Shown: positions 42,332 to 62,898 of the stretch, one piece after another
Position numbering within the stretch: position 1 is the stretch's first letter
Layout: every line of letters begins with the position of its first letter
Assembly: GCA_963706955.1 (NCBI GenBank)
Contig: CAVPOC010000003.1
Coordinates: 160,001-224,000 of the forward strand
Source: an uncultured Verrucomicrobiae bacterium
GTDB lineage: Bacteria; Verrucomicrobiota; Verrucomicrobiia; Chthoniobacterales; Terrimicrobiaceae
Reading direction: 5' to 3'
Length of the DNA: 64,000 bases
Made by a program: the position numbers and the translations under genes
Notes under the pieces: model-generated
Seen by the model: the letters and a program-made list of their open reading frames with translations, nothing else
Database searches by the model: none
Told to the model about the DNA's origin: nothing

Positions 42332-42536
42332 ATGTCAGAAAAGTTTACAAATCTCGTTCATTCCTCACGAGAGGGTCAGAAATGCGAACCAGGTGCCAAC
42401 ACCAATACGGGTTCGCCGCGAAGGCAGTGGCCCGGGCAGGCTAGTCAAGGAGCGTGCCCCAGGGAATCGGATTTCGGTCGTCTTTACAGTTGGTGGGCCG
42501 CTGGTTTACCAGCCTCAGCGCGTCCGCGTCGCCTAA
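42332..42536 (+). CDS. Small ORF of the VFTVGGPLVY family (1-nt frameshift)
   Basis: MSEKFTNLVH...RISVVFTVGGPLVYQPQRVRVA*; homologous to 62692-62898. Confidence 0.5.
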
Positions 42537-43335
42537 CCAGTAGCAACCATTTCGCCAAAATCCGCGTGCTGCATTGCGTCGCTGGAGCAAGCGCTAGTGC
42601 GGTTATTTTAATATTTTGATGCTCGTGGGTAAGCGCTTGCAGAGGAAAGTCAGATTCACTTCAGATGACTTGTTTGCTGTTGTCTTTGCATCGCGCCGCT
42701 CGTGAATATGTTAAGACTGGCGCTTCAATGCGGCTGCTCCGGCCGACTCGACCTCTCGCAAGCGCGGCTACGCCTGCGGCGACTGCAACGCCGGTCATGA
42801 AGAAAGTCCCGCGGTGACCTATTGGACAGCCAGCGCAGGAGTAGCCGATTAGATGAATGCCGGTCGCATCATTCGGATCAGCCATCACGCCGCACCCTCA
42901 TTGAGGTTGAGGGTGGCTTCTTTATTCACGCGATCACAATCTGCCGGTTGACCGCCGCCGAGAAATATCTCGGACGCTTATCGCCGCTATATGCCGGTCG
43001 CTCTCGGCTCAGATTACCGTTAACGAATCGAGTCCCTTGATGCTCGCCGGGGCAAGAGTGTAATCTCTGGGTAATTGACACCCGATTTTGCACCTTGAGG
43101 AGGCCCGATTTTCGCACAAGAATCTGGACCTGGTGATTCCGAACACGTTCTCGGCGCGTATCAGATCGCCTGGAGCGATGAAAAGGTGCAGATCTGCGAG
43201 CAGCTCCTCATAGAATCGGTGTGAAGGTGCCCAAGCCGAGTGGGAGACTCGAACTCGTAGAAGATTGCTTTGGTCACAGCGAGATCGCTGCTGGCGCGTT
43301 GTTTGCCGTTTCGCTTCGCTCTCTCAAACAGTCTC

Positions 43336-44237
43336 ATGAACACGCCCAACCGAACGAGCGCCGCAGCGATCTCCCGTTAGGCCGGCGAGTTGTGGCGGAT
43401 AGCGCTTCGCTTCAATGGAAAGAGCTTTTCGTGCGGCGTTACCGATTTCCGAATGTGGTGGATCGTTTCCTCGTACCCGCAACCCCCGAGCCGTTAATCT
43501 CCTGCAGCCTCGCAGGCTCGGCCGAGTTCCGGGAGCGGGAGATTGGCGAGGCTTGGCTGAAACGGCAGATTGGCCCCGGCTACATTTTCGTCACCCGCTC
43601 AAAGACGCCCTATGAAGTGTGCCACACTTCGCCTGTGGGAGAGGAACTCGAAATTGTTCAGGTCCACATTGCGGTGGATCGCTTCCTTACGGCTTTGGAA
43701 GCTGCGTTTCCCGGCAAGACGGAAGAAGTGGAAGTGATGGACTACGCTGGGCGCGATGAAGCGCTTGCGCATCTTTGCTTTGCGTGCGCCGAGATGCTCT
43801 CAGCACGGACGCCCGGCAAGAGCAGACGCGTCACAGACCTGGCGCAGCTGTTCGCTTCATATCTCGTCGAAAAATACATCACCGCAGCCGCAGAGAAGCC
43901 CGATTTCCACAGTGGCCTGCCAATTTGGCGACTACGCAAAGTGGAGGACTACGTGCGTGAGCGACTCGCTGAAGAGATTTCAACCGAGACGCTCGCGGAG
44001 CTGGTGGAGCTGAGTCCGTTTCACTTTTCTCGTGTGTTCAAGCAGGCGACGGGAATGTCACCACTGCAATTTGTCACGCGCCAGCGGATCACCCGCGCGC
44101 AGCAACTCATCCGCGAAACCTCGCGCACTCTGATCGAAGTCGCCTTGGAGGTCGGCTATACCAGTCCGAGCCATTTCGCGAAAGTCTTTCGGCGCGTGAC
44201 CGGTGTGACACCGACCGAGTTCCGTAGCACCCTCTAA
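43336..44237 (+). CDS. AraC-family transcriptional activator
   Basis: GLPIWRLRKVEDYV, LSPFHFSRVFKQATGMSP, VALEVGYTSPSHFAKVFRRVTGVTP; probable start MNTPNRTS at 43336 with a frameshift near 43380. Confidence 0.92.
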
Positions 44238-44260
44238 GGGGTTGGCGCGGTCATTTTATC

Positions 44261-44321
44261 GCAAGAACGCGCTAGGGCGAGCAGGATCGGGCGAGAAGGA
44301 AACGGCGCGATGTCGGATACT
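44261..44321 (+). promoter_or_regulatory. Tandem box copy 2 (type A) plus -10 GATACT
   Basis: GCAAGAACGCGCTAGGGCGA-GCAGGATCGGGCGAG, 20 nt, GATACT; immediately after the AraC stop. Confidence 0.8.
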
Positions 44322-44411
44322 GCTGCCGTGCCTGAAACAGCTTCGGCATCGCACTACGAACATCGAACATAGCAAGGGCCGAATCGCTACCAACGTAAAA
44401 GGAGATAAACT

Positions 44412-45047
44412 ATGAAAGGAACTGTTCTCGACGGTCCGCGCGACTTGCGTTTCGAAGAACGCGACGCGCCGACCATCATCGAGACAACCGATGCTAACAT
44501 CAGGCTCTTGGCCACCTGCATGTGCGGTAACGATCTCTGGCCGGACGCGCCAATGGAATCGAGCAAAACTGGGCAGATCAGAAAGGCCAGCGTCGGTTGG
44601 CTTTGCGCCGGCCGGATCGTAACCACTCTGCTCGTCATCGCCTGGTCCGTCCTTTCGGCGGCCCCGACGTGGGCGGCCGACGACACCGAGCAGGTCGTCC
44701 TCACCGCCCACGAGAGACGTCGGGCAGCTACGCTCGCCGGCGATGTCGCCGCGCTCGACTCGATGATGACCGACGATCTCACCTTCATGCACGCGAATGC
44801 GGCGGTGGAGACGAAGGCCGAGTTCCTCGACGCCCTGAAGACCGGCAGGTACAAATACCAGTCGCTCACCGACGAGGAACATCGGGTGCGCGTCCACGGC
44901 GACACCGGGATCGTCTCGGGGACGTGTCGCATCCTTGTGACCGCGTCCGGGAAGGACATCGACATTCGTGTCGGCTTCACCGAACTCTGGGTGAAGGAGC
45001 GCGGAGCCTGGCGGATGGTCCTCTGGCAGGCGACCCAAGTGCCCTAG
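44412..45047 (+). CDS. Chimeric ORF: first ~44 codons of the Zn-ADH fused in frame to a signal-peptide-bearing NTF2/DUF4440 protein
   Basis: MKGTVLDGPRDLRFEERDAPTII...CMCGNDLWP matches 49478 and 59207; then GDVAALDSMMTDDLTFMHANA...FTELWVKERGAWRMVLWQAT. Confidence 0.75.
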   Translation: MKGTVLDGPRDLRFEERDAPTIIETTDANIRLLATCMCGNDLWPDAPMESSKTGQIRKASVGWLCAGRIVTTLLVIAWSVLSAAPTWAADDTEQVVLTAHERRRAATLAGDVAALDSMMTDDLTFMHANAAVETKAEFLDALKTGRYKYQSLTDEEHRVRVHGDTGIVSGTCRILVTASGKDIDIRVGFTELWVKERGAWRMVLWQATQVP

Positions 45048-45102
45048 CCAAACATCAACTTTGCAAACAACCCAAAATTCACTCGAAAAGCACGGCTCGT
45101 CC

Positions 45103-61274: not shown

Positions 61275-61329
61275 ACGGGATTAACTTCATCGACCGAAGA
61301 ACTCCCCTGCGTCTGGTTGCCCACGACCG

Positions 61330-61472
61330 GCAGGTCCGGAGTCGGCCGAATTCGCCGACGCGCCGGCAGGCCCGAGGAAATCGCGTCCGTCGTGCTGTGG
61401 CTTTGCAGCCCGAAGGCGAGCTATGTGGTCGGCCATGCCCTCACCGTGGACGGCGGTTCGACAGTGGGGTGA
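61330..61472 (+). pseudogene. 3' fragment of an SDR (paralog of the 52443-53210 end)
   Basis: [34 protein letters not shown]. Confidence 0.7.
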
Positions 61473-61599
61473 TTCGCGACCTCATCTGGTGATGAAAACT
61501 CTGGCCCGGAAAAACCGAGTGCACGAGACTCCTCGCATGCAGAAACAGAAGGCGAACTACAAACCAAACCAAAATCCGCTCGAAAAGCACGGCTCGTCC

Positions 61600-62484
61600 A
61601 TGGACCGTCGAAGATTTGTCGTCGCGGGAGTGGAGGTAGGCTTTGGGGTAGTCGCGGGGTCCCTTATGCCAACCGCAACGTCCATCGCGCAAGCCACGTT
61701 GAATCCTCGGAAGGAACAAACTTCGACGTCGTCTCCTTCGAACACCAACCAGACCGCTCGTATCTTCATCACCGGCTCCGCTGACGGGCTTGGACACGCT
61801 GCGGCTAAAACGCTGCTCGCTGACGGATACCAAGTCGTGGTCCATGTTCGCTCTGAGGCTCGGCTCACCGCCGTGCAAGACCTTGTGGATCAGGGAGCCA
61901 TTCCGACAATCGGGGATCTTTCAGACTTCGCGCAGACGAGAGACCTCGCCAGCCAAGTCAATAAGATCGGACAGATGGATGCAGTCATTCATAACGCGGG
62001 TGTTTACTCAGGTCCACAAGTGCTTCCCGTAAACGTCGTTGCTCCCTATCTACTGACGGCGTTAATCCATCGCCCCAAACGGCTGATCTATTTGAGCAGT
62101 GGTATGCACACCGGTGGACGAACAACCCTCATTGGCATGGACTGGACTGGTCGCACTTCCACTGGTTCCTACTCGGACAGCAAGCTTTTCGTGACGACCC
62201 TTGCCGCAGCCGTCGCTCGAATCTGGCCTGACGTTCTCAGCAACTCTGTCGATCCGGGCTGGGTGCCGACCAAAATGGGGGGAGCTAATGCGCCAGATGA
62301 CCTGCGGCTGGGACATCTTACTCAAGAGTGGCTTGCTACTAGCAATGATCCTGAAGCGCTTACGAGCGGAGGGTATTGGCATCATCAACGACGCGCTAAG
62401 CCGCATCCCGCTGTCCACGATACAGAGTTCCAAGCTCAGCTGCTCGACGAACTCGCTCGTGCAACAGGCACTCCGCTGGCATGA
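61600..62484 (+). CDS. SDR oxidoreductase with twin-arginine-like leader (intact copy)
   Basis: MDRRRFVVAG..ATSIAQA leader; FITGSADGLG, HNAG, YSDSKL; start could be 61537. Confidence 0.9.
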   Translation: MDRRRFVVAGVEVGFGVVAGSLMPTATSIAQATLNPRKEQTSTSSPSNTNQTARIFITGSADGLGHAAAKTLLADGYQVVVHVRSEARLTAVQDLVDQGAIPTIGDLSDFAQTRDLASQVNKIGQMDAVIHNAGVYSGPQVLPVNVVAPYLLTALIHRPKRLIYLSSGMHTGGRTTLIGMDWTGRTSTGSYSDSKLFVTTLAAAVARIWPDVLSNSVDPGWVPTKMGGANAPDDLRLGHLTQEWLATSNDPEALTSGGYWHHQRRAKPHPAVHDTEFQAQLLDELARATGTPLA

Positions 62485-62615
62485 TTGATAAGCCTCAAGT
62501 CATATTTGACCATTGGCAGCAAATGTTGGGAATGCGTGACTACGCGCTGCGCATTCGGGCGGAGTTTCATAAAAGTGTCCCCCTAATCAACAGTAAAAGA
62601 GCGCGCCGCTTTTCC

Positions 62616-62676
62616 GCAAGAATGCGACAGGCGTCGCAAGATCCCGAGAGCAGCCACTTGTTCGATGGTCGATCGT
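62616..62676 (+). promoter_or_regulatory. Tandem box copy 8 (type B)
   Basis: GCAAGAATGCGACAGGCGTC-GCAAGATCCCGAGAG, 20 nt, GATCGT. Confidence 0.75.
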
Positions 62677-62691
62677 CCCTTCGAAAAACTT

Positions 62692-62898
62692 ATGTCACAG
62701 AAGATTACAGAATTCGTTCATTGCTTTCGACCACTTTGCATATCTCCCGCCCAGGTGAGAGCGTCCGAGGTCCCGCCATCAAGACGGATTAACCGCGCCA
62801 AGCTGCTGGACCAGCGCGCGACGGTGAGTCGGATCTCAATCGTGTTCACTGTTGGTGAGCCGGTGATTTACCAACAGCAGCCCGACCGACTCGCCTAA
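62692..62898 (+). CDS. 68-aa small ORF of the VFTVGxPxxY family
   Basis: MSQKITEFVH...RISIVFTVGEPVIYQQQPDRLA*. Confidence 0.55.
   Translation: MSQKITEFVHCFRPLCISPAQVRASEVPPSRRINRAKLLDQRATVSRISIVFTVGEPVIYQQQPDRLA

Follow-up and report, generated by a model that had tools for sequence, protein, structure and literature searches.

The closest described counterparts of the element considered here are of two kinds. ANR proteins are smaller than 10 kDa and bind AraC partners, and feedback by direct binding has been proposed for them (PMC4983702); arrest peptides (SecM, ApdA/ApdP, the RQH family and uC_KYxIW) occupy a leader position and combine a variable N-terminus with a short conserved block near the C-terminus and a patchy distribution (PMC10987492). 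The element itself is a short protein motif, VVFTVGGPLVY, which occurs, once as the variant IVFTVGEPVIY, in three small open reading frames (ORFs) of a 64,000-nt stretch of DNA from an uncultured Verrucomicrobiae bacterium (contig CAVPOC010000003.1, positions 160,001 to 224,000; hereafter, the window). A preliminary description of these ORFs, made from the window alone, had proposed an unannotated family of microproteins, each member lying behind a tandem DNA box.

On the features compared, the motif family appears to fall outside the ANRs, the Sec/YidC arrest peptides, the short-chain dehydrogenases/reductases (SDRs) and the precursors of ribosomally synthesised and post-translationally modified peptides (RiPPs), and its mode of action may be like that of the first two. 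With the ANRs (such as Aar of enteroaggregative E. coli) and ExsD it shares a small product tied to an AraC/XylS regulator, and most motif proteins (68-100 aa) respect the ANR size limit. ANRs consist of three conserved alpha helices without a beta strand and are conserved along their whole length, whereas the motif proteins are predicted to carry a hairpin some 16 residues long, on a chain that is disordered and replaceable, and are conserved only over about 13-19 residues. ANR genes lie beside virulence genes and their transcription is activated by the partner AraC; the motif family lies beside detoxification genes in one Verrucomicrobia genus, and the box upstream of 13 of its 19 DNA copies is a putative site of two AraC-family regulators, AraC-1 and AraC-2. 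Furthermore, the Sec/YidC arrest peptides are encoded by upstream ORFs of secA, secDF or yidC and begin with a signal or transmembrane segment, whereas the motif ORFs precede genes of an oxidoreductase island and start with enzyme scraps or polar stretches (judged without a signal-peptide predictor). A conserved block near the C-terminus combined with a variable N-terminus is common to both.

Selection on the motif as a protein

Purifying selection acts on the motif as protein, whereas the chain on either side of it is nearly neutral. Among 16 distinct motif DNAs, non-consensus bases fall 15, 4 and 56 times at codon positions 1, 2 and 3, respectively, and the ratio of nonsynonymous to synonymous polymorphism (pN/pS) is 0.14. 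When the two best-represented carrier chains (types B and A, described below) are taken separately, the ratio is 0.08 (n = 5) and 0.17 (n = 4) in the motif, against 0.71 and 1.00 upstream of it and 0.66 and 0.68 in the tail. Mean identity among 48 type-B proteins shows the same arrangement (0.86 in the motif, 0.42-0.52 upstream and 0.34 in the tail), and indels come in multiples of three in six of nine cases inside the ORFs but in none of seven in the leaders (p = 0.01). Within the window, four of the 33 motif nucleotides distinguish copy 1 from copy 2, every one at a synonymous third position, and copy 3 departs from copy 1 by three synonymous, three conservative and one G/E change, the resulting GEP variant being present in 5 of 105 proteins. 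The motif positions and nucleotide comparisons of the preliminary description were all confirmed on re-reading of the sequence, and its proposal of selection on a short motif in otherwise variable microproteins holds across relatives; these keep the amino acids and not the nucleotides, the reverse of a nucleotide conservation indifferent to frame. The family offers a clear bacterial case in which about a dozen residues and an open frame are selected while the rest drifts as pseudogene scrap.

Four points weigh on the other side. Although 13 of the 19 DNA copies are open from the start of their class, six are broken, two of the three window copies among them; the open frames of type B (six of nine) exceed the neutral expectation of 0.2-0.6 only modestly; the copies share ancestry and are not independent; and the conservation of the motif is inflated because the copies were found largely through it. 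The same facts bear on the idea that the motif is a relic, all that is left of a gene that formerly functioned, with old synonymous divergence and with copies that are pseudogenes gathered by a motif-biased search. This is quite improbable. The island is rich in gene scraps, the six broken copies would be expected, the searches were seeded with the motif, and the RNA run X16 yielded scattered short contigs with none on copy 1 (a single run, whose contigs cannot show absence). Yet, in the same ORFs and lineages, the motif has been kept (pN/pS 0.08-0.17) where the SDR signature of the scaffold is gone (0.7-1.0); type B can be detected through its scaffold too, and still 105 of the 108 proteins collected retain the core; no parent protein was found; and the indels favour the frame. 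The family is very probably real and, in most lineages, probably still functional.

A conserved DNA or RNA site (for binding or recombination), or the precursor of a modified peptide, is highly improbable. The motif does sit at joints between unrelated gene scraps, but its variation is mostly at third positions (including TTG, CTG and CTA for Leu), no RNA fold is shared (-0.1 kcal/mol), and a stop directly adjoins the motif in the minus frame that shares these third positions. As for peptide modification, RiPP precursors come with maturation enzymes and a conserved leader or flanks, whereas the flanks of the motif are nearly neutral, lack conserved cleavage sites and are accompanied by no maturation enzyme among the 27 window ORFs scanned; the earlier suggestion of a modified-peptide core is accordingly unsupported.

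Range of the family and its scaffolds

A profile of 18 first copies retrieved 95 proteins and wider searches brought the set to 108 (near-identical alleles and the window's own products included), 105 of them with the core. Phe and Thr are fixed in these 105 by the selection pattern itself; Pro is conserved in 103, the last Val in 99 and Tyr in 97, with Glu or Gln following in 91 of 104 and Ala standing nine residues N-terminal of Phe in 87 of 104. The family is undescribed and confined to one genus of soil Verrucomicrobia, where 7 of 19 genomes carry the motif; it was found in none of 83 other genomes of the taxonomic family and in none of 400 sampled genomes of the phylum. Among 1.84 billion representative sequences there are 31 matches, and because all of them are only 40-192 aa long, no larger parent protein was found; none came to light among proteins of 92-2000 aa either (a search weak by the tool's own note), and 12 longer matches of 92-250 aa belong to the same family. 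Hence, the motif being a fragment of a larger protein, an outcome named beforehand as damaging to the proposal, did not materialise. The PDB sequences gave one match for a motif protein (E 0.75), Pfam none for the motif, NCBIfam 0 of 15, PADLOC 0 of 4 and the ESM Atlas a best match of 0.77 to a hypothetical protein; neither 'FTVGGP' nor the family was found in the literature searched, which did not cover subscription journals or bioRxiv supplements.

Chance matches were dropped from the pattern scans (7 of 15 in genomes, 11 of 15 in metagenomes and the single viral one), and five of the eight true genome matches were loci already in the set. Unrelated membrane proteins of about 150-175 aa with VFAIGGPF[VI]Y (L055, L058, L060, L065) were also treated as chance. 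Apart from these, the island is also present in a record titled betaproteobacterium (L042, L050), where its type A and type C copies hardly differ from those of the genus; mislabelling, misbinning or transfer would explain this.

The chain upstream of the motif has been exchanged in at least three ways. By start sequence, the 108 proteins comprise 50 of type B, 15 of type A, 12 of type C (some of them larger than the usual size), two of a very short type D and 29 other or partial ones. Type B opens with the 5' end of an SDR gene: residues 4-66 match positions 1-67 of adh_short (PF00106; E 4e-6 to 0.03 in four of five proteins tested), which is the first quarter of the fold, the glycine-rich SDR motif is eroding, and SDR matches stop near residue 58-71. 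Membership of the SDRs is not retained, the catalytic segment being missing, the match covering profile positions 1-67 of 195 only and the chain being predicted disordered; the motif itself does not align to SDRs. Type C shares the start of aldo-keto reductases (PF00248), continues in a shifted frame of the same gene and finishes with the end of the type-B scaffold. Types A and B have promoter and leader in common (85% DNA identity); their box is of one variant and that of type C is of the other.

The coding part of type A gave no alignment to type B above chance. Type A as an SDR scrap read in a shifted frame, which one alignment had suggested, is unsupported (HMM scores reached no more than 0.4 bits, and DNA z no more than 1.5 over 16 pairs); its upstream stretch is unalignable. 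A descent of the motif from a cupin hairpin was likewise not significant, the motif HMM scoring below 0 bits on the genome's Cupin_7 protein, the island cupin and AraC-1. This origin of much of the variable sequence in scraps of enzyme genes had been overlooked in the preliminary description, as had the frameshifts in two of the three window copies. Several independent scaffolds are available for comparison and bear on the origin of small regulatory genes from decayed ones, the reach being limited by the range of one genus.

Regulatory context and candidate partners of the peptide

Eight tandem boxes lie in the window, seven on the plus and one on the minus strand (Table 1), each made of two half-sites about 20-21 nt apart from start to start. 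As had been claimed, every window copy of the motif has such a box upstream, at 219-333 nt. A relaxed box pattern matches 26 times in the genome, against 1-8 times in five shuffles, and 7 of the 26 matches are in the island; the same tandem box also stands 5' of intact aldo-keto reductase and cupin genes in relatives. A sigma-70 scan gave no consensus promoter at the boxes. Owing to their location and to the two half-sites about 21 nt apart, a spacing which we take to be a mark of AraC sites, the boxes are probably operators of the adjoining AraC gene(s). Elsewhere, a tandem 21-nt repeat coding for a Gln/Lys/Asp-rich tract (G000:C1:159383-159560) produces false matches to the box pattern.

No gene of the island is better kept than AraC-1 (87-96% in eight other genomes), whose beta-rich sensor domain resembles ToxT and AraC; AraC-2 is a paralog at 64%. 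All seven motif genomes hold one or the other, and the motif occurs in none of the nine genomes without them (Fisher p = 0.002, overstated owing to linkage and kinship). Among 18 mapped loci, AraC-2 lies directly 5' of box and ORF in three (G001, G002 and L050; long match) and AraC-1 about 0.9 kb downstream of the motif ORF in two (window copy 1 and G012). The window's AraC-1 is broken; as the region 43336-43400 is intact in runs X4, X5, X6 and X13, the lesion is either strain-specific or an assembly error. A co-decay of copy 1 with AraC was rejected, run X4 having a broken copy 1 along with an intact AraC. The 195 nt 5' of AraC-1 (43144-43338) are skipped in a contig of run X4, and part of them has other flanks in X2, X4 and X13, possibly as a small repeated or mobile element.

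In an AlphaFold model from a 44-row alignment, residues 1-63 fall below pLDDT 50, indicating disorder (48 for the whole model), and strands 69-75 and 78-84 form a hairpin across the motif (block pLDDT 83), in agreement with the beta-hairpin guessed earlier. The reading that we tentatively prefer, plausible though short of probable, is a trans-acting peptide that binds the neighbouring AraC and exerts ANR-like feedback without being related to the ANRs. If the tandem box is the operator of the adjoining AraC gene(s), the peptide would be made once the regulon is switched on; the upstream chain would serve only to carry the ribosome from the start codon to the motif, and the hairpin would dock on the cupin-like AraC sensor domain, at an edge strand or pocket, and lower activation as ANR proteins do. 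Trans action is favoured because there is free variation in which gene comes next and how far away it lies (AraC, alcohol dehydrogenase (ADH), cupin, SDR scrap, DUF2255 scrap, cyclophilin-like, hydrolase and others), because tails, which differ greatly in length between motif proteins, and stops differ between types, and because neither a stem-loop nor a C-rich tract follows the motif ORF.

This preference has to be held against several findings. The co-occurrence of motif and AraC may be mere linkage within one island; several copies per genome, always in first position, would fit a cis role equally; and the motif profile gave no match to AraC or cupin strands (below 0 bits). Three of the ten genomes with AraC-1 or AraC-2 lack the motif (G005, G010 and G013), and other Verrucomicrobia, in which no motif was found, have close AraC homologs (70-80%); therefore, the regulator works without it. 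Should AraC be the target, the motif would serve as a ready peptide tool for an AraC subfamily that is widespread and of unknown inducer. Somewhat doubtful, as a fuller account, is that of a young gene born inside a pseudogene, in which a hairpin ligand for the AraC detoxification regulator came to be carried on dead gene starts; the motif would have moved across at least three scaffolds and two promoter types as a short linear motif on neutral carriers, and AraC sensor domains would have in it a structurally new kind of peptide ligand.

The leader position of the ORFs brings in a different, rather unlikely reading, in which the nascent motif stalls the ribosome in cis at or just after Tyr-Glu/Gln and tunes the operon that follows, perhaps only when an inducer such as an aldehyde or quinone is present, and with an effect on transcription or stability. 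The motif ORF is the first behind the box (at 219-335 nt in 13 of 19 copies; three contigs are too short and three have no match), a genome holds at most three copies, at separate promoters, and the stop falls 17 residues past Phe in 49 of 105 proteins. A variable N-terminus, a conserved block near the end and an unconserved tail form the pattern used to find arrest peptides, and uC_KYxIW, whose motif lies 7-11 residues ahead of the stall site, sets a precedent for the distance (PMC10987492). Such a leader peptide is harder to reconcile with a downstream gene and distance that are not fixed, and with the absence of a shared RNA structure, of a C-rich rut-like bias downstream of the motif ORFs (p = 0.86) and of a terminator at copy 3. 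Because tails and stops are different in types C and D, a set spacing to the stop is not required; a RAPP-like motif, a signal and a consistent transmembrane segment are all missing, and five of the eight window boxes lack a motif ORF. If ribosomes do stall on it, the motif would be a new arrest motif outside the secretion context.

The evidence for selection and for the hairpin would serve equally for a trans-acting peptide with another target, such as a regulon enzyme (cupin, carboxymuconolactone decarboxylase-like protein or hydrolase), a protease, RNA polymerase or the membrane, and this is unlikely. The motif is hydrophobic, and a 19-residue window exceeds 1.6 on the Kyte-Doolittle scale in 63% of 63 type-B proteins; types A (0 of 17) and C (0 of 21) never pass that value, so a membrane span is not shared. 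The last hairpin of ChrR-like cupins (PF12973) of the genus is similarly spaced by eye, but the likeness is not significant, and the regulon enzymes have been shuffled and many of them broken, in contrast to AraC-1 with its 87-96%.

Window copies and the surrounding island

Table 1. Motif copies, tandem boxes and AraC-1 in the window
Feature	Positions	Strand	Remark
Tandem box before copy 1	42258..42284	+	likely AraC operator
Copy 1	42332..42536	+	type A, frameshifted; ATG 42332 not in motif frame, 20-nt loss
Motif VVFTVGGPLVY, copy 1	42477..42509	+	
AraC-family regulator AraC-1	43336..44237	+	301 aa in relatives; here codon-15 stop and 4-nt loss
Tandem box before ADH-start/DUF4440 ORF	44261..44287	+	without motif ORF
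Tandem box	47383..47409	+	leader as in copies 1 and 3; without motif ORF
Tandem box before copy 2	49006..49032	+	
Copy 2	49116..49440	+	type C; aldo-keto reductase start joined to type-B scaffold end
Motif VVFTVGGPLVY, copy 2	49339..49371	+	
Tandem box before SDR gene	52334..52360	+	without motif ORF
Tandem box before alpha/beta hydrolase gene	57195..57221	-	without motif ORF
Tandem box upstream of zinc ADH gene	58717..58743	+	without motif ORF
Tandem box before copy 3	62616..62642	+	
Copy 3	62692..62898	+	type A, intact 68-aa ORF
Motif variant IVFTVGEPVIY, copy 3	62839..62871	+	

The motif HMM found these three copies (E 3e-11 to 6e-9) and no others in the 4.16-Mb genome, the next match having an E of 2.3. 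Copy 3 is the sole one open from start to motif. Copy 1 had been presented as an ORF of about 68 aa starting MSEKFTNLVH, which does not stand: this start and the motif are in different frames, the motif frame has no ATG, and the copy is short against the intact copy of a relative. Copy 1 is spanned gap-free and with identical sequence by contigs from X1, X3 and X4, three runs that belong to the same study, so its frameshift is not an assembly error. The kinship claimed for copies 1 and 3 was borne out, the two being plain paralogs at the DNA level (77 nt at 82% and 90 nt at 76%), and their supposed common length was not. In copy 2, a 2-nt loss near 49198 shifts the frame relative to its first ATG; run X6 has these 2 nt, and an in-frame ATG is retained at 49288.

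The genes of the island, which spans about 20 kb, are those of oxidoreductases and detoxification, and many of them are duplicated or survive as scraps; they encode AraC, SDRs, an aldo-keto reductase, zinc ADHs, a flavin reductase, a GNAT, a hydrolase, a glyoxalase and DUF2255, cyclophilin-like and cupin proteins. A broken scrap of a second AraC DNA-binding domain (57202-57651, minus strand) adjoins the minus-strand box. The zinc ADH at 49478-50513 is frameshifted near 50345 and its paralog at 59207-60223 is whole; contigs of X1 and X6 lack one base near 50345, so the former gene is intact in other strains. One 172-nt segment coding for a twin-arginine-like leader occurs three times (45060-45231, 53478-53649 and 61557-61728), fused to SDR twice and to GNAT once, as a reused gene scrap. 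A hydrophobic membrane-protein scrap is present twice (46195-46632, without a Pfam match, and 57624-57875; 83% over 101 nt). Further upstream, at 30461-35539, a Met-rich membrane protein is clustered with a GFA-like protein, a helix-turn-helix/TPR-like gene and two thioredoxin-like ORFs, which are paralogs and have WxRxHD at their ends.

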